Origin: Escherichia coli
GTDB taxonomy: Bacteria > Pseudomonadota > Gammaproteobacteria > Enterobacterales > Enterobacteriaceae
Length of the DNA stretch: 64,000 nucleotides
NCBI RefSeq assembly: GCF_030013595.1
Contig: NZ_CP122768.1
Strand: one strand, 5' to 3'
Part shown: positions 49,578 to 59,419 of the stretch, piece after piece
Position numbering within the stretch: position 1 is the stretch's first letter
Layout of the letters: each line of letters opens with the position of its first letter
Notes under the pieces: model-generated
The model's input: the letters and a program-made list of their open reading frames with translations, nothing else
What the model was told of the DNA's origin: nothing
Databases searched by the model: none
Translations under genes and position numbers: made by a program

Positions 49578-50342
49578 ATGAATAACTCCCCCCGCTACCC
49601 GCAGCGCGTTCGCAATGATCTGCGCTTCCGTGAATTGACTGTGCTACGCGCTGAGCGTATTAGCGCCGGTTTTCAGCGCATTGTCCTTGGCGGCGAGGCG
49701 CTGGACGGTTTTACATCGCGCGGCTTTGACGATCACAGCAAACTCTTCTTTCCTCAATCTGATGCTCACTTTGTGCCGCCAACGGTAACGGAAGAGGGCA
49801 TCGTCTGGCCGGAAGGACCACGCCCACCGTCGCGTGACTATACGCCGCTGTATGACGAACTACGCCATGAACTGGCGATTGATTTCTTTATTCACGACGG
49901 TGGCGTCGCCAGCGGCTGGGCGATGCAGGCGCAACCGGGCGATAAACTCACGGTGGCAGGTCCGCGCGGTTCGCTGGTGGTGCCAGAGGATTACGCGTAT
50001 CAGCTGTATGTCTGCGATGAATCCGGAATGCCCGCACTGCGCCGCCGCCTGGAAACGTTGAGCAAACTTGCCGTTAAACCGCAAGTTAGCGCGCTGGTTA
50101 GCGTGCGGGATAACGCCTGTCAGGATTATCTCGCGCACCTTGATGGTTTTAATATCGAATGGCTGGCACATGATGAGCAGGCAGTAGATGCGCGTCTGGC
50201 GCAGATGCAAATCCCTGCCGATGATTACTTCATCTGGATAACCGGCGAAGGCAAAGTCGTTAAGAATTTAAGCCGCCGCTTTGAAGCGGAACAGTATGAT
50301 CCACAGCGGGTACGTGCAGCGGCTTACTGGCACGCAAAGTAA
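49578..50342 (+). CDS. yqjH: NADPH-dependent ferric-siderophore reductase YqjH (NfeF)
   Basis: 254-aa ORF in the siderophore-interacting FAD-binding family. Confidence 0.93.
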   Translation: MNNSPRYPQRVRNDLRFRELTVLRAERISAGFQRIVLGGEALDGFTSRGFDDHSKLFFPQSDAHFVPPTVTEEGIVWPEGPRPPSRDYTPLYDELRHELAIDFFIHDGGVASGWAMQAQPGDKLTVAGPRGSLVVPEDYAYQLYVCDESGMPALRRRLETLSKLAVKPQVSALVSVRDNACQDYLAHLDGFNIEWLAHDEQAVDARLAQMQIPADDYFIWITGEGKVVKNLSRRFEAEQYDPQRVRAAAYWHAK

Positions 50343-50390: not shown

Positions 50391-50467
50391 ATGTCTGGCC
50401 CTGCTGTCTCTTAATTGGTTGTGTAATTAATTGAAATTAAACAGGTAAATGCAATTTATTTTTTATC

Positions 50468-50489
50468 GATATGCCTTTTTGTATGCCTA
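50468..50489. repeat. 22-nt repeat GATATGCCTTTTTGTATGCCTA (distal island end)
   Basis: 20/22 identical, in direct orientation, to 58569-58590 next to int. Candidate integrase arm-type sites. Confidence 0.6.
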
Positions 50490-50916
50490 TTGGGAAAAAC
50501 ACGCTTTCTTCAACAGGGAATAAAAGCCGCTTTTATGGTGTTTTGAAACGGGTTTTAAAATGGCGCTCGTGGTGCTCTCGGGCACTCAATGGCGCTCTGT
50601 GATGTGGCTGGTGGTATGTGGCCGCCATGCATAATGGGGCTGATTTTGTTCATGGCCCGGCAGCGGGTGAGCATTTTTTACCATATTCAGGGTAAAAATG
50701 GGCGAAAAAGTTCATTTCTGGCATGGCCTGAAATGCCACGCAGCCCGCGCCGCGTGTGCTCTTGCCGGGGAAAACGGCGCGGAATAATGACCGCCACCCC
50801 ACCTTATGGCGGGCAGTCCCACGAAATCCCGGTTATTTCCGTTTATTCCCGGATTAATCCCGCCTTCTCCCGCATTCTCCCGGCTGTTCCCGGAATTAAT
50901 CGCCGTGGGGTGGTGG

Positions 50917-51207
50917 TTATCTGGTGTGGTCGTAGTTCTGCCGTAGTCGTTCACCCTCAGCGCAATGACGCGGTTTTTTAACGCCGCTGGTAACGCAACG
51001 CGGGCAGGTCATGACGTGGCTGATATACGCATCACGGGCAGCCAGCCACGTCGCTGACGGGGCGCACATATCCGCCAGCGCCTGGCCGTTGCTGGTGGTG
51101 TTGTCTTCCGGCCATGTTTCGGGCTGGTGCGCTTCCGGTAAATCCGGTGCAGGTAATGCCCGGATAAACTCACACAATGCATCCGGCAGGCTGAATAACT
51201 TATGCAT
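50917..51207 (-). CDS. hypothetical 96-aa ORF (doubtful)
   Basis: ATG start but no obvious SD. Shares a ~29-nt patch with the helicase gene. Contains CPRC...HC. Confidence 0.3.
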   Translation of the reverse strand: MHKLFSLPDALCEFIRALPAPDLPEAHQPETWPEDNTTSNGQALADMCAPSATWLAARDAYISHVMTCPRCVTSGVKKPRHCAEGERLRQNYDHTR

Positions 51208-51630
51208 AAATCTGATGTTCTGAATCGCTGAAAACGTGCGTTTTATGGCGTTTTTTCGTGATTTCTGCGTGTTCTGATGTGCTCATTTCGCTGTATCCCT
51301 TGTGTGGCGCGGGCTGCGCGTGTGTTTCGGTGTTCTTTTTTACCGCCAGAAAACGGTAATCAGGCATATAAACACGGCTGTAAGCCGCGCCGCGTCTGGC
51401 TTCGCGTGATTTTGTGCGTCAAAAAGTGCATTTTTGCCCTTAAAAAGCGTTATTCGTAATTCACTGGTAAATGCTCCGCAGGCCGCGCCATTGCTGGCCT
51501 TTTCGCTATTCTGTGTGGTTTTGCTGTTTAACCCGTTTTGCACACTAAAATTGCCTTGCATCCCGCGCCACGTAAGGGATTGCCGGGTTTTTATGTTGCG
51601 TTTTTTGCCGTGCGTAATATTGTGCAAGTT

Positions 51631-51871
51631 GGTGGGACTGGTGGGAACTGTGGGAACCGCCTAGAACCACGCGGCTTTCAGTGGTTCCCACCAGTTCCCA
51701 CGTTGGCTTTTTGTGGGAACCGTGGCGGTTATTTTTTGTTCTTTGCGGTTCCCACCAGTTCCCGCAGAGTTCCCACTCAAAAACGAACAATAATCATACT
51801 GATGGTTTTATTATTTACTGATTTATATATGTTTTATTTTTACGGTTCCCACAGTTCCCACCAGTCCCACC
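51631..51871. repeat. iteron cluster, the putative island replication origin
   Basis: 12 copies of GTGGGAAC/GTTCCCAC (three degenerate) at 9-11-bp spacing. Perfect 28-bp inverted repeat 51631-51658 / 51844-51871. An AT-rich stretch at 51777-51843. Lies directly 3' of the helicase gene. Confidence 0.7.
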
Positions 51872-51906
51872 ACTTTTTCAGTTTTTAAAAACGCAATTTT
51901 TGTGAA

Positions 51907-53745
51907 TTATTCATCAATTGCGAATAACAATGCATTCTGGCCGATGGCGTAAACGCGGTGTTTCTCCCCGTTAACGGAAACGCGTTTTGTGTATCGGCGT
52001 TTCCCGTCCGTGTCGCGGTCAACAATCGCGCCAGCATCGTCAAGACTGGCCGCTATGCGTTTCAGGTCGTAGCCGCTGGCCGCCTCACATAGTGCTTCCG
52101 GTAAAAACCAGTAAACCCGCTCGCCGTTGCTCCCCGGTCGCCACCATCCGGCGCGGGTGCTTACTGGTTCGCTGTATGTGCTGCCCCCTTCAAAGCGTGA
52201 AGCATGGCGGGCGATAAACCCCGCGACGGCCCGGAGTATTTTCACGTCCTCCGATTGCCCCCGCCCACGATAGTCCGCCCACGCATCAAACATCGCTTTC
52301 ACTGCCTCCAGTGCTTCGCCCTGTTTCCACGGCAGAATCCCGGCAGTTATCGCCATTTCCCCGGCCAGTGCGCACAGTGTGAAACGCGCGGCGGCGCGTG
52401 CCTCCTGTCCGGTGCTTACGGGGAATTGTTCGCGCAGTATGGCGTACATATCCGCCAGCGTCTGGCCGTTGCTGTCGGTGCTGGTGGTGTCACTTTCATT
52501 GCGGGAAATCAGCCAGCGCACAAACTCCGGCCCGGCGTGGCCGTAATGGGTAGCCGCATTACCGCGCAGTGTTTCGGCAAATTTCCGGCCTGCTCCCCGG
52601 CGTTCTGTGTCGTTGTCGGGGTTGTGGGGTAGTGCCATTCCGTGAAGACAGTCAAATGCCCCGTAAAGCCGCTGTGCCGGAATATCCAGTAACCGCATTT
52701 CCTGCCCGGCCTTGATGCGCTGGCCGCCGCTTTCCATGTGTTTACCCACGGTCATTTCCCCGGTGGAAATAATCATGGTGCGCCATGTGTTGACCGGGCG
52801 GGCCATGCCGGACACCTTGCCACGCTGACGGCCTGTTCCGTTGCCAAGCTGATAAATCAGCCCGCCAATATCTCTGGCCGGGGCTTCGCCAATTTCATCC
52901 AGTATCAGCGCGGTATCGTTCCGCATGGTTGCCAGCCCTTCAAGCCCGGTGCTGGTGGCGTTCCAGTTGCGTTTAAAGTTGCGGGGTTCTCCCCATACGC
53001 TACAGGCCACCAGCGCCCCCACGCTTTTCCCGCTGGAACTGTCGCCCATGAAATGAAATCCGCCGCTGTCCACATCAAGCAACCACAGCAACGGCCCGGC
53101 GAGCGATGCACACACGGCCAGCATGGTTACCGGGTTTCCCCGGCATAATGCGGCCACGTTGTCGCGCCAGCCCTCCGGCGTTCCTGCGGTGGCGTACTCC
53201 TGTGAGCCTGCTTCTGTTGACTGAAACACCACATCACCATCACCGATAACCCCGCCCGGCATGACAAACAGGGCCGGGGAGTGCCACCCGGTGGCCGTGG
53301 CCGCGAGCGCCCGGCGTTTTGGTGCTGACTCCATGATGTATTCAGTCAGTGCCTGCCGTTGTTTGTAGGGAATGGTAACGCCCATGCGTAGCAGTTCCTG
53401 CCGGAGTTCTCCGCCGTCTCCGGCGAGCATTTCCATCGGTGCGGCCCATTCCCGCCACTGGCCTGACGGCGTGAGAAAACGGAGTAATCGCCCGTAGTTT
53501 TCGTCTTTGCTGTCGCTGGTCATGGCGATGACCTCCAGCGGGGAACATATAAACGTGTCTGTGTTGGTTGAGTCGCGCACGCCGTGCCAGTAAAGGCCGG
53601 GTTTCAGTATCTGGCCGCCGTCCACCTGTACATGCTGCGAATAAGTGGCGTAGCCCGGACGCGCCGGGCTGACTTTGGGGTGTTTCTTGCGTGGTGGTTT
53701 TCTCTTCCCGGATGTGACCGGGGTTTTAGTGGTTGTCCGGGTCAT
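51907..53745 (-). CDS. DUF927-type / SF3-like replicative helicase
   Basis: 612 aa. Walker A GDSSSGKS and Walker B ALILDEIGE are visible. Its start overlaps the primase stop by 20 nt. Confidence 0.8.
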   Translation of the reverse strand: MTRTTTKTPVTSGKRKPPRKKHPKVSPARPGYATYSQHVQVDGGQILKPGLYWHGVRDSTNTDTFICSPLEVIAMTSDSKDENYGRLLRFLTPSGQWREWAAPMEMLAGDGGELRQELLRMGVTIPYKQRQALTEYIMESAPKRRALAATATGWHSPALFVMPGGVIGDGDVVFQSTEAGSQEYATAGTPEGWRDNVAALCRGNPVTMLAVCASLAGPLLWLLDVDSGGFHFMGDSSSGKSVGALVACSVWGEPRNFKRNWNATSTGLEGLATMRNDTALILDEIGEAPARDIGGLIYQLGNGTGRQRGKVSGMARPVNTWRTMIISTGEMTVGKHMESGGQRIKAGQEMRLLDIPAQRLYGAFDCLHGMALPHNPDNDTERRGAGRKFAETLRGNAATHYGHAGPEFVRWLISRNESDTTSTDSNGQTLADMYAILREQFPVSTGQEARAAARFTLCALAGEMAITAGILPWKQGEALEAVKAMFDAWADYRGRGQSEDVKILRAVAGFIARHASRFEGGSTYSEPVSTRAGWWRPGSNGERVYWFLPEALCEAASGYDLKRIAASLDDAGAIVDRDTDGKRRYTKRVSVNGEKHRVYAIGQNALLFAIDE

Positions 53746-54769
53746 GCTCCATTTCCCATAGCATCAAATCGTTAAAGTCGGAAAGGTCTGGTGATGCACC
53801 GGGCGGCCATTCCGGGAATGTGACGTAACACCCGGCCAGCAATGCGGCTTCGTTGGCTGCTCTGGAACCGGGGTTATCTTTTGATGCCCGGTCATCATCC
53901 CCGGCGATAACGAGAGATATGCGCGAGCCGTATCGCTCACGCAGCGCCATAGCCACATGTTTAAGGTTTCCCGCATTCATGGCACACACCACGGCCATGA
54001 CGTTCCAGTACTGGAGAAGGGCGGCCCCGGTGGCCCACCCCTCACACACGTAAACGTCATGTTCCGGCGCTTCCGGGGCCATCAGGTCAAAGCTCCCCAT
54101 AACATGGAAAGCCCCCTGCACCTGACCATCACGGAGAAACATTTTTCGACCGTCCGGGCTGATAATCTGCACGTTCACCACTTCGCCGCATACGTTGTAC
54201 AGCGGGACAAGCAAATCATTACCTGACTGATACAGATTGCCGGGCTGTAGCCGTTTTTTCATGAGATAGGGATGAGAAGGGTTTGCCACCTCCGCCCGGC
54301 CAAGCAACTCAAAGGCCCGGCAGGCGGTCAGTTTCTGGCGCTGGTGGCGCTGTTGCTGTTCCCGCTGGCGGAGTCTGGCCGCCTCCTGTTCTGCGGCCTG
54401 TACCCGCACCCGTTGCGCCTCCCGTTGTTCGCGGGTCATTACATCAGGTTTGCCCAGCGCGGGCAGGCACAGCCCCAGCCTGTCCGCCACAATACGGGCG
54501 GCATCAGTCTGCCGCACATTCCATAAATAAGCCCCCAGCGCCACAAGGTCGCCGCCGCTGTCCCCGGTGGCGAAGTCGTGCCAGCATCCGTCCACCAGCG
54601 AGACGGAAAAACTGCCCGCGTGACGGTCTGCACGCGTGGGGTTACGACACACCCATTCAGTGGCCTGCCGTTTACCTTCGGGCAGCCATTCGGGAACAAG
54701 GATTTCTGCATGTTGTGCCGCCACTGCGGCAACGCTACGGATTGCGTTAATCGTGGCTATGTCACGCAT
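53726..54769 (-). CDS. Toprim-domain DNA primase (P4 alpha / bacteriophage-type)
   Basis: 347 aa from the ATG at 54769 (MRDIATINAIRS...). Toprim-like VYVCEGWATGAAL and LVIAGDDD acidic motifs. The 397-aa ORF is an upstream extension. Confidence 0.75.
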   Translation of the reverse strand: MRDIATINAIRSVAAVAAQHAEILVPEWLPEGKRQATEWVCRNPTRADRHAGSFSVSLVDGCWHDFATGDSGGDLVALGAYLWNVRQTDAARIVADRLGLCLPALGKPDVMTREQREAQRVRVQAAEQEAARLRQREQQQRHQRQKLTACRAFELLGRAEVANPSHPYLMKKRLQPGNLYQSGNDLLVPLYNVCGEVVNVQIISPDGRKMFLRDGQVQGAFHVMGSFDLMAPEAPEHDVYVCEGWATGAALLQYWNVMAVVCAMNAGNLKHVAMALRERYGSRISLVIAGDDDRASKDNPGSRAANEAALLAGCYVTFPEWPPGASPDLSDFNDLMLWEMEHDPDNH

Positions 54770-55076
54770 GTTGCCCGTCCTCCCTGATTTCCCCGGTGCG
54801 GCAGCGCCAGTTATACGCCTCCACAACCTCACTGAATCCGGCCACAAGTTCAGCCGTAACAGCGATGGAATCGCCCAGGCTGCGTAGTTCATTTGGACCA
54901 AGAGCATTATTGTCGCCAATTACCGAAAGTAGCCGCCCTGTGCCAGCCAGCGCATCAAGCAGTTTGCGGGCGCAGTAATCCGCATCATCAAACATTGCGC
55001 GGGCTTCCTGTGCGTCTGCGTTTTTGATGGCCGCAACCAGTAGTTCAGGTATCCGGGTGTTATACATATCACGCAT
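54762..55076 (-). CDS. hypothetical 104-aa island protein
   Basis: Coupled at both ends through ATGCGTGA overlaps. Weak paralog of the 98-aa neighbour. Confidence 0.6.
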   Translation of the reverse strand: MRDMYNTRIPELLVAAIKNADAQEARAMFDDADYCARKLLDALAGTGRLLSVIGDNNALGPNELRSLGDSIAVTAELVAGFSEVVEAYNWRCRTGEIREDGQHA

Positions 55077-55365
55077 GGCTTACCTCCCCGGCCTGCTGGT
55101 CGTAACACTCCATCAGTTCGGCCATACAGCCAATGAGGGCAGGGGCTGTCTGTAGAAATCCGGCTAACTGGCAGATCTCGTCTCTGGAATAGGTGATGGG
55201 GTTTTCGCGTAACTGGCTTTCCTCCAGTGCCTTACCAACAAAGGCAATCCCCGCAAGTAAATTCACTCTGTGCCAGTCTGCATCAACGCGCAGACTCCAG
55301 CGGCTTTCTTCGTCCGGCATACTGCTCATGGCGGCTTTCATTGACTCACGCAGACAATCACGCAT
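55069..55365 (-). CDS. hypothetical 98-aa island protein
   Basis: Starts at the ATG at 55365 (MRDCLRESMKAAMS...), overlapping the upstream stop by 8 nt. Confidence 0.6.
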   Translation of the reverse strand: MRDCLRESMKAAMSSMPDEESRWSLRVDADWHRVNLLAGIAFVGKALEESQLRENPITYSRDEICQLAGFLQTAPALIGCMAELMECYDQQAGEVSHA

Positions 55366-55555
55366 GACGCACCCCCTGAGCCGGAACGCGGCCAGCAAAC
55401 AGCAACACAAAATCACGCGCCAGCATACGGCGGGCGGTTGTTTCATCGGGTGCGTTGACGGATTCGCGGTGTGGGCGGTCGTTCAGGTCGGAACGGCGAA
55501 CAGCCAGAAAGTGAAAGGTAAATTCAGGGTGTAACGGGGTTGGGGTCGTAGCCAT
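55358..55555 (-). CDS. hypothetical 65-aa island protein
   Basis: The ATG at 55555 is preceded by a strong AAGGAGG RBS. Begins MATTPTPLHPEFTFHFLAVRR... Confidence 0.65.
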   Translation of the reverse strand: MATTPTPLHPEFTFHFLAVRRSDLNDRPHRESVNAPDETTARRMLARDFVLLFAGRVPAQGVRHA

Positions 55556-55746
55556 TCTGGCAGCCTCCTTTTGCAAATTTAAGGAGTCACCGCCTGAGTT
55601 CCTACACTCATAAGGGGCGGTGACGCTGGCAGGGGTAGGAATACCGGCGCAAAAGGAAACCGGCCAGCCTTTCGGCTGCCCCACCAGCGCCACCATAGAT
55701 ACAGTGCGGGTCTTGCCGCTGTGCATGGGTGCGCGATGGCACGACA

Positions 55747-55775
55747 CAAAAAAAGACGCTGGGCGCGTCTGTGTC
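55747..55775 (-). terminator. intrinsic terminator within the alpA-to-replication-module spacer
   Basis: The minus strand reads GACGC-GCCCA-GCGUC followed by U7. Confidence 0.75.
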
Positions 55776-55981
55776 GCCTTTTGCTCATTAAACGGGTTCC
55801 TACGCCCGGCTGGTGGATTTACACCAGCGGGGGAAATATAACGCCCACCAGCGATGGCAGGCAAGCAATATTTGCGGTTGCCGCCCATCCCGTGGGGCGT
55901 GTGGTGGTTGTTTTGGGCGTGAGAACGCCCCGGCCCTGTTACGGGCCTTTCTGGCATTTTCATAATGATTATCGCGGTTGG
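55776..55981 (-). ncRNA. candidate structured leader or ncRNA between the alpA stop and the terminator
   Basis: Successive hairpins: GGCCC/GGGCC, GGGCGT-GAGA-ACGCCC, ACGCCCAC...GTGGGGCGT, GCTGGTG...CACCAGC. No convincing ORF or RBS. Bounded by an intrinsic terminator. Confidence 0.35.
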
Positions 55982-56236
55982 TTAGTGGCTGGTGGGTTCT
56001 TTGTTTTTTTGCGCTCTGGCGATAATTTCTGCCATTACGTTATTGCGTTCCTCCACGCGGGCCGCAAGCCATGCATTAACTTCGGATTCAAACCATCCAA
56101 CGCGGCGCAGCCCGCGACGAAAGCCGGGGATAAATTCGCCAGCCCGAATCATGTCGTCAATGCTGGTAGTGGAACGAAGGCGCAGACGCGCAGCAACCTC
56201 GCGTTTGGTGAGGATTTTATCTTGTGTGGTGTCCAT
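55982..56236 (-). CDS. alpA: AlpA/MerR-type (HTH_17) phage regulatory protein
   Basis: 84 aa from the ATG at 56236 with an AAGAGG RBS. ILTKREVAARLRLRSTTSIDDMIRAGEFIPG...WFESEVNAWL is the typical AlpA pattern. Confidence 0.8.
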   Translation of the reverse strand: MDTTQDKILTKREVAARLRLRSTTSIDDMIRAGEFIPGFRRGLRRVGWFESEVNAWLAARVEERNNVMAEIIARAQKNKEPTSH

Positions 56237-56312
56237 GATATTTCGCCTCTTAATTGTATTAATTGGCCCTAACTGGCCATAACAATATGGAAGCACAAGA
56301 AGGCGTGAAATT

Positions 56313-56348
56313 GCCGGACATGTCCATCAGATGGCTGACATGTCCGGC
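56313..56348. promoter_or_regulatory. perfect 12-bp inverted repeat GCCGGACATGTC-N12-GACATGTCCGGC, an operator or a terminator
   Basis: Lies between the stop of the 292-aa gene and the alpA promoter region. Confidence 0.5.
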
Positions 56349-56369
56349 GTATACTCATTCGTGAATTGA

Positions 56370-57248
56370 CTAATCAACCTTAAACCAGCGTCGCATGGTT
56401 TTTTGTGAGGGCAGAGATAAACCAGCTTTGCAAAAATCGTTTTCTAATTCTGTTGGCTGGCCCTTGGTTTTGTCTTCTCTTACATGAAGCCATGGTTTGC
56501 CTCGCTTCGTTTCATCCTTGTAATACAGATAAAGCAAATCATCCACAAAAGCAGGCAGTGCGCTTCTTGGGTCTGGTTGTGTCGTCGGTGATGGTAGTTT
56601 TTTGGTTATGCACCCCATTAACATCCCGTTAGCGCAATCTCTCCCGCCATCCTTAAGGATTTCGATTTCTTCGGCGGTAATAAACAGGTCATCAATGCTT
56701 ACATCGAGTGGACTGGAATCAAAAGTAATCATCGGGCTGAGGGAATAATCGTCACCGTCAGTGTTCATTGTCCTTGGCTTTCCAAGAGAAAAACGAGCCG
56801 ATGACTTTCCATATTTTACAAAATCATAAAAAGGCATGGATTTGGTCAGGTTGCATATGGACATTAACCCTTCTATGGTCAAGTACCTGTATCCCATTAA
56901 AGGTATTTGGTTTTTCGGAATACCTCTGGGACGTTCTTCACTGATAAACAGAATTGCTGTTGTGACTTCAAAATCTCCCGCGCTATATGGTGTATAGACG
57001 GTAAATGGTAGCTGACACAGTGAATCGCCAAGCGGTTTAAATAAAACATACTTATCAGTTGATTTAGTTTCATAATGGTTAAACAGGTCAATTTCAGCCC
57101 GCCACCTTCCTGATATATGTGTACAAATCTCCAGCATTCCTATGTCAGCAAAATGAAGCAAATCATCAACACTGCACTTATTGGAGTTTGCAGTCAGATA
57201 ACTGGCCGCATCGCGTAGTGAGTAAAACAATCTTTTAGGTAATGCCAT
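56370..57248 (-). CDS. orphan 292-aa protein in the int-alpA cargo slot, function unknown
   Basis: The ATG at 57248 lies 1 nt after the int TAA (TAATATG). AT-rich compared with the rest of the island. Only HTH-like patterns at the two termini are recognisable by eye. Confidence 0.75.
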   Translation of the reverse strand: MALPKRLFYSLRDAASYLTANSNKCSVDDLLHFADIGMLEICTHISGRWRAEIDLFNHYETKSTDKYVLFKPLGDSLCQLPFTVYTPYSAGDFEVTTAILFISEERPRGIPKNQIPLMGYRYLTIEGLMSICNLTKSMPFYDFVKYGKSSARFSLGKPRTMNTDGDDYSLSPMITFDSSPLDVSIDDLFITAEEIEILKDGGRDCANGMLMGCITKKLPSPTTQPDPRSALPAFVDDLLYLYYKDETKRGKPWLHVREDKTKGQPTELENDFCKAGLSLPSQKTMRRWFKVD

Positions 57249-57249
57249 A

Positions 57250-58524
57250 TTATTCACCAACCACTTTTAAGCCACGAAAACCGCCAGTTGCACTAAGGCT
57301 TCCGGTTGCTGCCTGTTCGATAAAATCACCCCACCACGCCATCAGTGGGCGGCGTTGCTCCAGATATGTGGAGCGATTGTAAGCCCGTCTCACCGTGTCC
57401 TTATCCAGATGGGAAAGCGCAGCCTCTATTACATCTGGCGGGAACCCCTGTTCATTAAGCGCCGTACTTGCTACAGAGCGTAAACCATGCGCCACCAGCT
57501 TTCCGGTATACCCCATGCGCCTGATAGCGGCGTTTGCGGTCTGTTGATGCATCCCACGCATGGGGTCGCTGTTATGTGGAAAAACAAACTTTCGATGCCC
57601 GCTGATTGGGCGCATGGCTTCAAGAATGGCCATTGCCTGATTATTCAGGGGGACAATGTGCTCCCTTCGTTGTTTTAGTCGCCCGGCTGATATACGCCAC
57701 ACTCTGGCATCTGCATCTATCTCGCTCCACTGTGCCCCGGCTGCCTCGCATGGGCGGCAAATAGTTAATAATTGCCATTCAATAACAAGACGCGTTTGAA
57801 GTTCTGCGCGAGCCGTTGCCAGTTTTTGCATAAATTCCGGCAACTCATCAGGCCTGATTGTTGGCATGTGTTTAACTACAGGTGGGTTGAATGCCTTGCT
57901 GATTTGAGCGGCGGGATTAGCTGGAATTAATCCAATATTCACTGCGTAATACATAACCTCATTGATTCTTTGTGCCAGCCGTCGCACCGTATCCGCTTTG
58001 CCCTGTGCTGATACAGGTTTCAGGGCTTCGATAAAATCCCGTGCAACCAGTTCTGTGATTGGGCGATGGCCTATGGGTGGCAGCACATGACGCTCAAGAG
58101 AACGCCATATATCACGGAGTGTATTTGCCGCCAGATTCTGGCCGCGCTTTACTTCAAACCATTCTTCGGCCACGCGCTGAAATGTGTTTAATCGCCGTAT
58201 TTCATCATCCCGGCGTTGTTTTTCCCTGTGTTCTTTGGGGTCAGTTCCATTTGCGACCAGTGAGCGATACTCGTCTTTAATCCTGCGAGCATCGGCAATG
58301 CTGATTTCGGGATATGCACCAAGGCTTAACATTGCCCGTTTTTTGGTGTGTGGCTTGTAGTACCGGAACCGCCATAAGGCTGATGCGCTACCCGCTTTCA
58401 CAACTAACTCCAGCCCATCGCCATCCGTGATAAATAAATCCTTCTCGGCGGTGAGCGATTTCTTCTGCAAACTTTTAATCGTCGCTGGTGTAAGTAATTT
58501 TGTGTTTTTGGCCACTGGTTGCAT
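57250..58524 (-). CDS. int: P4-type tyrosine integrase
   Basis: 424 aa. N-terminal arm-binding-like region (LTPATIKSL...GLELVVKAGSASALWRFRY). C-terminal AHGLRS...HLDKDTVRRAYNRSTY catalytic region. Adjacent to a tRNA. Confidence 0.92.
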   Translation of the reverse strand: MQPVAKNTKLLTPATIKSLQKKSLTAEKDLFITDGDGLELVVKAGSASALWRFRYYKPHTKKRAMLSLGAYPEISIADARRIKDEYRSLVANGTDPKEHREKQRRDDEIRRLNTFQRVAEEWFEVKRGQNLAANTLRDIWRSLERHVLPPIGHRPITELVARDFIEALKPVSAQGKADTVRRLAQRINEVMYYAVNIGLIPANPAAQISKAFNPPVVKHMPTIRPDELPEFMQKLATARAELQTRLVIEWQLLTICRPCEAAGAQWSEIDADARVWRISAGRLKQRREHIVPLNNQAMAILEAMRPISGHRKFVFPHNSDPMRGMHQQTANAAIRRMGYTGKLVAHGLRSVASTALNEQGFPPDVIEAALSHLDKDTVRRAYNRSTYLEQRRPLMAWWGDFIEQAATGSLSATGGFRGLKVVGE

Positions 58525-58568
58525 CCCGAAACAGGTTTAAGGCATACGAGATTGCTTCTGTTTGTGAG

Positions 58569-58590
58569 GATATGCCTTGATGTATGCCTA
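58569..58590. repeat. 22-nt repeat GATATGCCTTGATGTATGCCTA (int-proximal end)
   Basis: Partner of 50468-50489. An inverted AGGCATA copy lies at ~58547. Confidence 0.6.
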
Positions 58591-58712
58591 AAGAATCTGG
58601 CTTATACCTTAGCAAACTGGCCAAAACTGGACAATAAAAAACCCGCAAGCCTTGTGTGGCGCGGGTTTCGTCTGATTAACTGGCCGTATCTGATACTAAC
58701 CGAATGTCAATT

Positions 58713-58788
58713 TGGTGGCCCCTGCTGGACTTGAACCAGCGACCAAGCGATTATGAGTCGCCTGCTCTAACCACTGAGCTAAGGGGCC
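58713..58788 (-). tRNA. ileX: tRNA-Ile2 (anticodon CAU, lysidine-modified), ileX
   Basis: 76 nt: GGCCCCTTAGCTCAGTGGTTAGAGCAGGCGACTCATAATCGCTTGGTCGCTGGTTCAAGTCCAGCAGGGGCCACCA. Cloverleaf arms and encoded CCA are present. Confidence 0.93.
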
Positions 58789-58912: not shown

Positions 58913-59419
58913 ATGGTTGAGGATATTTTGGCTCCAGGGTTACGGGTCGTGTTTTGCGGTATCAACCCTGGGCTTTCATCTGCCGGGACTGGTTTTCCCT
59001 TTGCTCATCCGGCAAATCGCTTCTGGAAGGTGATATATCAGGCCGGGTTTACCGACCGTCAGTTGAAGCCGCAGGAGTCACAGCATCTGCTGGATTATCG
59101 TTGTGGCGTCACCAAACTGGTAGACCGTCCAACGGTGCAAGCCAATGAAGTTTCAAAGCAAGAACTACACGCAGGCGGGCGTAAGCTGATTGAAAAAATT
59201 GAAGATTATCAGCCGCAGGCGTTGGCGATTCTGGGCAAACAAGCATATGAACAGGGATTCAGCCAGCGCGGTGCACAGTGGGGGAAACAAACGCTCACCA
59301 TTGGTTCGACGCAGATTTGGGTGCTGCCAAATCCCAGTGGTTTAAGTCGCGTTTCACTGGAGAAACTGGTTGAAGCGTATCGCGAGCTGGACCAGGCGCT
59401 GGTAGTGCGTGGGCGATAA
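58913..59419 (+). CDS. mug: G/U mismatch-specific uracil DNA glycosylase Mug
   Basis: 168-aa ORF with the GINPG motif visible. Confidence 0.94.

Follow-up and report, generated by a model that had tools for sequence, protein, structure and literature searches.

A rare, intact island at ileX of Escherichia coli with the gene plan of a minimal phage satellite and a repeat array like that at Mu ends

How does an element move that carries a full set of genes for integration and replication and none that can be recognised for capsids or packaging? This question is raised by an island of about 8.3 kb next to the tRNA gene ileX in Escherichia coli (assembly GCF_030013595.1, contig NZ_CP122768.1), where we analysed a stretch of 64,000 nucleotides, hereafter the window. 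The island is a real, rare and intact mobile element, in type a satellite without a late module and not a new category. It is very probably an integrative replicon of the lineage of phage P4 and the Gram-negative phage-inducible chromosomal islands (PICIs). That it is a working minimal satellite depending on a helper phage appears somewhat probable. A Mu-like helper, for which a phased repeat array of the island would be the packaging (pac) signal, is put forward here as a tentative idea.

The island lies between ileX and nfeF, which are 53 bp apart in K-12 MG1655. The site comprises the following features:

58713–58788, minus strand: tRNA-Ile(CAT), ileX, anticodon CAU, the only tRNA in the window; its 3' end is the attR core
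58913–59419: mug, to the right of ileX, with rpoD also on that side
49578–50342: nfeF (yqjH), the left flank, about 8.3 kb from ileX, with nfeR and aer also on that side
50397–50408: attL core, a degenerate 11–12-nt copy of the ileX 3' end, TGGCCCTGCTG
50409–50522: att arm, integrase-specific, containing the repeat GATATGCCTTnnTGTATGCCTA (50468–50489), whose partner is at 58569–58590

Alignment of the K-12 attB with both junctions placed the insertion point at the 3' end of the tRNA. Since the tRNA is intact at the right junction and a degenerate copy stands at the left, the island extends from about 50409 to 58712. A displaced tRNA copy with small deletions was reported for PICIs at tRNA-Ile2, which is a PICI site in Pasteurellaceae (PMC10111431 supplement). 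The predicted circle junction reads ...CCGAATGTCAATT-[TGG(TGGC)CCCTGCTG]-TCTCTTAATTGGTTG... and the predicted empty site nfeF terminator...GCTATRTC-TGGTGGCCCCTGCTGG. A megablast search of 5,426 complete E. coli genomes detected the island in full in 14, mostly enterotoxigenic E. coli (ETEC) from pigs, which confirms a presence/absence polymorphism. A preliminary description of this DNA had proposed a strain-specific island exactly at ileX; the genome count, the K-12 gap and the junction alignment bear this out, and the segment is not universal at the locus. The left arm was found in 31 of the 5,426 genomes, in a single copy each and never inside a prophage. Some island copies, namely those of ETEC4090, ETEC1732 and ETEC1734, are broken by an insertion carrying aph(3')-Ia or by ISEc12; the island is therefore able to acquire resistance genes or insertion sequences.

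All genes of the island are on the minus strand and read away from the tRNA, in the order that had been described, with the corrections given below. From right to left they are:

57250–58524, minus strand: int, P4-type tyrosine integrase (Arm-DNA-bind_3, Phage_int_M and Phage_integrase; NCBIfam PRK09692, E 1e-156; PHROG match)
56370–57248, minus strand: 292-aa gene of low GC, abutting int (TAA-T-ATG)
55982–56236, minus strand: alpA, helix-turn-helix (HTH) regulator/excisionase of the AlpA/Vis family (Pfam Phage_AlpA, 18 bits, below cut-off; HTH_17; PHROG_66, E 2e-12)
55358–55963, minus strand: 201-aa open reading frame (ORF), P4 eta/kil-like, reading through both RNAs into the Icd frame
55749–55841, minus strand: isrK / a1b1 (seqA-like) upstream target and terminator (RF01394, 60.7 bits; gathering score 50)
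55613–55700, minus strand: C4/CI-type antisense immunity RNA (Rfam RF01695, 79.6 bits; gathering score 45), full length
55358–55555, minus strand: Icd-like gene, 65 aa, cell-division inhibitor family (NCBIfam phage_ICD_like, E 7e-20)
55069–55365, minus strand: 98-aa gene at the position of P4 epsilon, fast-evolving
54762–55076, minus strand: 104-aa gene, overlapping each neighbour by 8 nt
53726–54769, minus strand: Toprim primase with a DnaG-like zinc-ribbon region (Pfam Toprim_3; PHROG_2249 DNA primase, E 4e-50)
51907–53745, minus strand: DUF927 replicative helicase (Pfam, E 8e-83; Walker A GDSSSGKS, Walker B LILDE; PHROG primase/helicase)
51630–51872: replication origin with nine GTTCCCAC iterons, a perfect 30-nt inverted repeat and an AT-rich stretch at about 51780–51840

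The succession of int, alpA, primase-helicase and a 3' origin is that of P4 and the Gram-negative PICIs, as had been proposed. The P4 left operon comprises Vis, cI/eta/kil, epsilon, ORF151, cnr, alpha, the crr iterons, attP and int, and the island is collinear with it. Homology to P4 was found for Int (35% identity, E 2e-75), for the AlpA-like protein (41% identity to ORF88/Vis, E 3e-11) and for the primase, of which the Toprim part alone is homologous to P4 alpha (36% over 109 aa). It was also found for the immunity region, in which the C4 stretch shares 70% DNA identity with the P4 cI region, the isrK-like upstream target 79% with P4 8608–8676, and the 201-aa ORF 42% amino acid identity over 182 aa with the P4 "cI/ash" ORF region. 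The two elements differ in size (8.3 kb versus 11.6 kb for P4), in their iteron sequences and in the helicase, which is a separate DUF927/Cch-type gene in the island and part of the fused alpha protein in P4. In addition, P4 has sid, delta, psu, epsilon and a P2-type cos, whereas the island has none of these: the psu-delta-sid late operon (P4 9583–11460) had no tblastn match in the island, and neither Pfam nor PHROGs gave a match to it. The P4-like core used by SatelliteFinder consists of int, psu, delta, sid, alpA, epsilon and alpha. Judged by its sequence, the island is better described as the left operon of P4 minus the late operon.

Gram-negative PICIs follow a four-zone plan with C4/isrK RNAs and DUF927-class primases (PMC10111431). 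Like those of the EcCICFT073 type, the island has co-oriented int, alpA and pri-rep, an origin downstream of rep, and a tRNA 3'-end integration site with flanking repeats, features by which such islands are recognised (Fillol-Salom 2018; PMC10111431). The Integration zone, the dynamic "Bro" zone with C4/isrK and the Replication zone are all present, and the Late zone is almost empty. Neither a PICI-type capsid homologue nor terS nor rpp/ppi was found in the island using Pfam and PHROGs, and it has no non-coding cosN of the lambda type. More generally, Pfam, PHROGs, NCBIfam and PADLOC gave no match in the island to families for capsids, terminase, lysis, sid/psu/delta or epsilon, in line with the earlier statement that morphogenesis and lysis genes are lacking. 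According to the published SatelliteFinder rule, int, alpA and a primase/replicase alone define a "Type C PICI", a class of which more than 6,000 were set aside as possibly defective (PMC10085698); the island should count as one.

The earlier suggestion of a place among the PICMIs (phage-inducible chromosomal minimalist islands) had to be given up, because fis integration in Vibrionaceae is the hallmark of that family (PMC10803314) and the island, an E. coli element, occupies ileX. The two share a good deal: int, a gene abutting int, alpA, one or more small genes and a primase, small size, long non-coding stretches, and no genes for capsid remodelling or packaging. The differences are that a P4-type RNA immunity, which the island has, is not described for PICMIs, and that the island has a separate DUF927 helicase in addition.

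Candidate cos sites were also considered. The 19-nt P2/P4 cos had no match at three mismatches or fewer, and the P4 cos region gave only noise in blastn-short. EcCICFT073-type PICIs use a lambda-like cosN. The sole one-mismatch match to lambda cosN, CGGCGGCGACCT instead of GGGCGGCGACCT, is located inside the primase gene (54546–54557, minus strand), is within chance expectation for the window and was rejected, being probably a chance occurrence in GC-rich coding DNA.

The stretch behind alpA had been described as a structured leader plus terminator. The terminator is present, and the supposed leader consists of the C4-type RNA and the isrK-like RNA listed above. An a1b1-type match at the upstream target (RF03163, 38.6 bits) is below its gathering score and overlaps the isrK-like RNA, and a promoter/terminator scan gave a promoter-like site at 55835–55864. 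The C4 loop UCCUUUUGC is perfectly complementary, over 9 nt, to GCAAAAGGA, a site overlapping the Icd-like gene's Shine-Dalgarno sequence; this predicted pairing has the layout of the P1 immI and P4 immunity design, filed in Rfam under CL00128. DNA similarity to phage records (P1-like, N15-like, P4 cI and Stx) is confined, within the island, to the immunity-RNA region, and the left arm had none to any of 50,697 phage records. In P4, translation of the nested eta/kil frame from an upstream promoter overrides RNA-mediated termination (summarised in PMC10111431). We infer that the immunity RNA of the island controls the Icd-like gene and the primase-helicase operon.

Two side observations concern the annotation of this region. 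The Pfam PF10554 Phage_ASH match (55519–55837, minus strand; residues 42–148 of the 201-aa ORF) spans precisely the genes for the isrK and C4 RNAs, a stretch that old P4 records name "put. ash gene" or "cI gene product", and NCBI labels the 201-aa ORF either "ash family" or "Icd-like". What this family captures may be mainly the conservation of RNA genes, or of the eta ORF nested there, and not an independent protein. In a variant island of STEC308 at the same ileX site (L037 11771–12376), the Ash/Icd region is rearranged and the 98-aa gene is missing; it is in the zone from alpA to the primase that the family varies.

The gene between int and alpA had been called an orphan, which does not hold. 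Its start is one base past the int stop codon, and its dN/dS of 0.27 indicates purifying selection. Only three close clusters were found among 5.8 billion proteins; an exhaustive HMMER scan yielded a family of 33 representatives of like length with conserved HTH-like N- and C-termini, and in three unrelated contigs from viruses, a homologue with 27% identity is located between an integrase and an alpA-like gene. From this recurrence we judge that the gene is not random cargo but a member of a small family of the int-X-alpA slot. Searches of Pfam, PADLOC and PDB with the protein gave no match, profiles of 30 relatives gave nothing in Pfam or PDB, and the AF2 model was unusable (pLDDT 30). PICMI genes that overlap or adjoin int occupy the same position, and one of these is required for excision (PMC10803314). 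On otherwise unrelated backbones (IMG/VR L038–L040), one of which carries ORF6N and two LexA-like S24 repressors (L040), the same int / 292-aa-family / alpA cassette was seen, and it may travel as a unit between island types.

Could the island chiefly serve anti-phage defence, with the 292-aa gene or the small genes as cargo that replication amplifies on infection? Defence cargo occurs on P4-like satellites and PICIs. The 292-aa gene has 40–44% GC versus 55–62% in the replication genes, the slot between int and alpA varies among relatives, and PICMIs carry a defence system and shield their hosts against competing phages (PMC10803314). However, neither the 292-aa protein nor any other gene of unknown function in the island has a PADLOC defence match. 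The 292-aa family, with its HTH-like ends, is found specifically next to integrases, where an excision or regulatory accessory like PICMI iolg/icg fits at least as well. We therefore regard defence as the main role as very improbable; such a role would be compatible with a satellite.

The replication operon is compact. From the Icd-like gene through the primase, neighbours overlap by 8 nt, and primase and helicase overlap by 20 nt. The 98-aa protein has no similarity to P4 epsilon and falls into three clusters only in the protein collection; the 104-aa protein has no family match in Pfam, PHROGs, PADLOC or NCBIfam. At its C-terminus the helicase carries a Cch-type HTH (HTH_56), and the NCBIfam match to SCCmec Cch1 is weak. 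It is 37% identical to the helicase of phiAH14b, a published satellite, and, over one third of the protein, 25% identical to a helicase in the SaPIpT1028 record. The exact iteron GTTCCCAC occurs nine times within 51641–51861 (about 220 bp), versus 2.0 occurrences expected in the 64-kb window; the iterons flank the AT-rich stretch, and their positions are kept in relatives with 82–86% helicase identity.

The 1.4-kb arm beyond the origin had been described as mostly non-coding. This needs correction, since it holds a conserved gene and a non-random array:

50917–51207, minus strand: conserved 96-aa gene with an invariant H-x3-C-x2-C...H-C motif
50817–50892, minus strand: candidate pac-like protein-binding array, seven (C/T)GGGA units and one degenerate CGGAA (TRF)

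The C-terminal domain of the 96-aa protein is encoded just after the helicase even in Pseudomonas relatives (60% helicase identity); no fold or sequence match accounts for the protein. A 43-nt direct repeat, 88% identical (51061–51103 and 52441–52483), joins the 96-aa gene and the helicase gene; both copies encode ...NGQ(A/T)LADM..., which suggests that part of the helicase coding sequence was duplicated into the 96-aa gene.

Relatives of the island were found at other sites and in other hosts. The replication half (about 50523–55963) recurs between dinD and yicC at 96–98% identity, together with a 28%-identical integrase; there, L003 is a minimal element of 7.7 kb, and L004 has extra genes at its far end (a single-stranded DNA-binding protein (SSB) fragment, PerC and Mor). 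The att arm is not common to relatives with the other integrase, homology to which begins at about 50490–50523. The break-points lie at the junction of alpA and eta and some 115 bp from attL; att arm, int, X and alpA therefore behave as one exchangeable module, whose parts would all adjoin only in the circle. The far end of L004 (7486–7567) bears a RefSeq tRNA-Tyr annotation that ARAGORN does not call and that may represent what is left of a tRNA-like sequence or a fragment associated with att. L032, a metagenomic enterobacterial contig, has the same island at the same site (78–85% protein identity for most genes; 47% for the 96-aa gene). L033 is a close IMG/VR relative with no recognisable capsid genes in its late zone. 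More distant relatives are located in Pseudomonas at tRNA-Leu, tRNA-Asn and tmRNA, where a simple search did not find exact att repeats. In eight Pseudomonas loci (L007–L011, L014, L034, L035; three att sites, about 12.1–13.8 kb), a second tyrosine recombinase directly follows the gene holding the domain like that of the 96-aa protein, and it seems to belong to the element. Finally, phiAH14b (Pseudomonas sp. ANT_H14) and vB_Pae_U10 share helicases of 37–38% identity over more than 90% of their length and the order int, regulators, primase-helicase with the island. They are larger (10–17 kb), and U10 has a GpN-like capsid gene.

This capsid gene of a distant relative is one of the reasons to ask whether the island descends from a larger PICI or P4-like satellite and is now decaying, its late zone deleted and vertical descent its sole mode of spread, without any specific mobilisation. 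The island is rare and mostly confined to pig ETEC, and some copies carry ISEc12 or the aph(3')-Ia transposon. Both the dinD-yicC relatives and L032 continue past the 96-aa gene with additional genes (an SSB fragment, PerC and Mor), of which some are pseudogenes. On the other hand, all nine genes are intact, and dN/dS against L032 is 0.07–0.31 (0.07 for the primase, 0.08 for alpA, 0.10 for the helicase), that is, under purifying selection, which argues against a decaying remnant. Moreover, the island retains its two att ends and the arm repeats, the same minimal form is found at two att sites with unrelated integrases, and the Pseudomonas relatives are equally small from int to the post-helicase gene. 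We consider a remnant unlikely.

If the island is a working satellite, it would spread inside the particles of a helper phage. The preliminary description had found neither cos nor pac. For cos of the lambda and P2 types this stands; a total absence of pac is doubtful because of the array at 50817–50892, which resembles the ends of Mu. Its units are spaced 10, 10, 10, 11, 10, 10 and 10 bp apart, and it lies directly 3' of the 96-aa gene and is followed by a hairpin with GGTGGGG (50791–50812). A three-unit pattern of this kind has 0 expected matches in the 64-kb window, so the array is non-random. It is present in the relatives L003–L006 and partly in L032, and it is kept where the flanking DNA stops aligning (in full in L006, in part in L032). 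Two other readings of the array were set aside. A CsrA sponge, which the GGA-rich units might suggest, is disfavoured because the strict 10–11-bp phasing points to binding along one DNA face, and there is no Rfam match at this position; integrase arm sites were rejected because the array is in the block common to elements with 28%-identical integrases.

Arrays of the same type are located 30–80 bp inside the ends of Mu-like phages (positions counted from the genome end):

Mu: CGGGA 32, TTGGA 43, CGGGA 52, TGGGA 62, then GGTGGGG 75
B3: TGGGA 44, TGGGA 54, TCGGA 64, CGGGA 74
BcepMu: CGGGA 55, CGGGA 65, ACGGA 75
Mu-like prophage of the island-bearing ETEC1732: layout as in Mu

The arrays span 32–81 in Mu, 44–78 in B3 and 45–79 in BcepMu. 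Scanning IMG/VR with a four-unit pattern, we obtained at least 120 contigs (loci L045–L164). Many of their arrays are island-like with variable spacers, and many lie 100–400 nt from a contig end; the typical neighbour is an HTH repressor gene reading toward the end, followed about 2 kb on by a Mu-type transposase (called by Pfam DDE_2, Mu-transpos_C and HTH_Tnp_Mu). Among the matches listed, 30 of 120 array loci have one or more Mu hallmark genes, and a Mu-type transposase is found at 20, in 19 cases on the same strand as the array and 1.7–5.8 kb from it. The phased (C/T)GGGA-N5 array therefore, as far as these comparisons go, appears to be a common signature of the pac-proximal end of Mu-like phages in three genera. 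In the viral contigs L055 (4853–5395, 7480–7514) and L079, the array precedes, by about 2.1 kb and in the same orientation, a gene that encodes a homologue (31% identity) of gp27, the small terminase of Mu; a Mu transposase is absent from the 12 kb fetched. Other recurrent array classes have no detectable Mu genes; these include the ...CCGGGACATACCGGGACAAATCGGGACAAATCGGGACAATT group (L058, L060, L069, L091 and others) and the TTCCGGGAACTT tandem group.

For the island, the Mu-pac-like array is a candidate replacement for a helper-type cos site. Mu packages by the headful, starting from the pac-proximal end (PMC5557969), and a Mu-like helper has been reported for the Pasteurella PICI PmCI172 (PMC6092414). 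Two relatives of the island encode Mor/C-type activators, that of L004 being 31% identical to Mu C (E 3e-15) and that of L032 a weaker match. A Mu-related prophage, matched from the left end through A and B, was found in 91–96 of the 5,426 genomes (about 1.7%) and in three of the 14 island genomes, namely ETEC1732 and ETEC1734, which form one lineage, and UMNF18. Given the shared ecology, this co-occurrence is only suggestive of a Mu link. The ETEC1732 prophage (L166 from 1176 onward; chromosome 2159657) has inserted into flhA, a gene for flagellar export whose annotation reads truncated FHIPEP protein, and this strain should therefore be non-motile.

Several points weigh against a satellite mobilised by a Mu-like phage. 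Of the array loci listed, 90 of 120 have no Mu hallmark gene in the fetched DNA, 25 of these being plain tandem repeats, and the array is therefore not exclusive to Mu-like phages. No island protein is homologous to any Mu protein, including the transposase proteins A/B and the structural proteins, and the island has no Mu ends, so that the array is all it has in common with Mu; the copy studied here has no Mor/C gene; and no CGGGA-type array was seen in the Pseudomonas relatives or in U10. The co-occurrence with Mu-related prophages amounts to two independent lineages of pig isolates, and insertion sequences or transposons have entered some island copies. PmCI172 is likened to the island from its published description; it encodes a capsid homologue and makes small capsids, whereas the island has no capsid gene and the Mu-like helper that we infer for it is no named phage. 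The reading as pac depends on the position of Mu pac, reportedly mapped to about nucleotides 32–58 of the left end, where the Mu array lies (Groenen & van de Putte 1985; Harel et al. 1990). Moreover, the array unit CCGGGAAC resembles the island iteron GTGGGAAC, and the array could instead be a crr-like replication element.

This last point leads to a further alternative, an integrative plasmid-like element without a dedicated helper. Such an element would excise and replicate like P4 in its plasmid state and would move only by generalised transduction, by conjugative mobilisation from an unrecognised oriT or by transformation. Its array would serve replication or partition, with the helicase or the 96-aa protein binding to it. 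We hold this alternative to be improbable. The full excision and replication set without packaging genes, the iteron-like units and the equivalent position of P4 crr, between alpha and attP, speak for such an element, as do the phased 10–11-bp direct repeats, which are typical of ParR-type centromeres. However, no relaxase, oriT, ParA or ParM was found in the island. The immunity RNA, the Icd-like gene and AlpA are hallmarks of phages and satellites, the array is common to the ends of Mu-like phages and not to plasmids, and the Mor/C activators of the relatives are best explained as acting on a phage.

Returning to the helper-dependent satellite, we can outline how the island might work, the resting, excision and replication steps being modelled on the biology of P4, P1 and EcCICFT073. 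The sequence itself shows that a P4-type integrase inserted the island into the 3' end of ileX, and that a constitutive-looking promoter in the eta-like ORF is followed by the isrK/seqA-like target, the C4/CI RNA and a second target at the Icd ribosome-binding site. At rest, the C4-like RNA would pair with both targets, ending transcription early and blocking Icd translation, and replication would thereby stay off. A helper phage would then turn on alpA, in keeping with the AlpA-driven induction of PICIs (PMC6092414). Transcription from the alpA promoter and translation of the eta-like ORF would run through the RNA region and override termination. Int and AlpA, perhaps with the 292-aa protein, would excise the circle, and primase and helicase would fire the iteron origin and produce multimers. 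More speculatively, a Mu-type terminase could bind the array and package by the headful some four to five tandem copies of the island, a number based on a Mu head of about 39 kb. PICMIs are likewise packaged as concatemers (PMC10803314). In those members that have them, Mor/C would switch on the middle and late genes of the helper, as P4 delta does for P2. It is possible, at the same tentative level as the Mu-like helper itself, that there is an enterobacterial lineage of minimal satellites living on Mu-like phages, with a P4-type core, no capsid genes, concatemers packaged through a mimic of Mu pac, and Mor/C in some members.

If this is true, a minimal satellite like the PICMIs would exist in E. 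coli itself, with about nine genes, none of them for capsids or packaging, and its helper would be a relative of Mu, which is among the best-understood phages. The island would then offer a clean genetic test of the minimum needed to hijack a tailed phage, and a test of how a terminase that cuts integrated phage copies treats a plasmid-type concatemer. It would also provide the first characterised case of the "Type C PICI" class, of which large surveys have so far set aside more than 6,000 elements. The island aside, the phased (C/T)GGGA array could mark the pac-proximal end of Mu-like phages in Muvirus, Beetrevirus, Bcepmuvirus and many metagenomic contigs.

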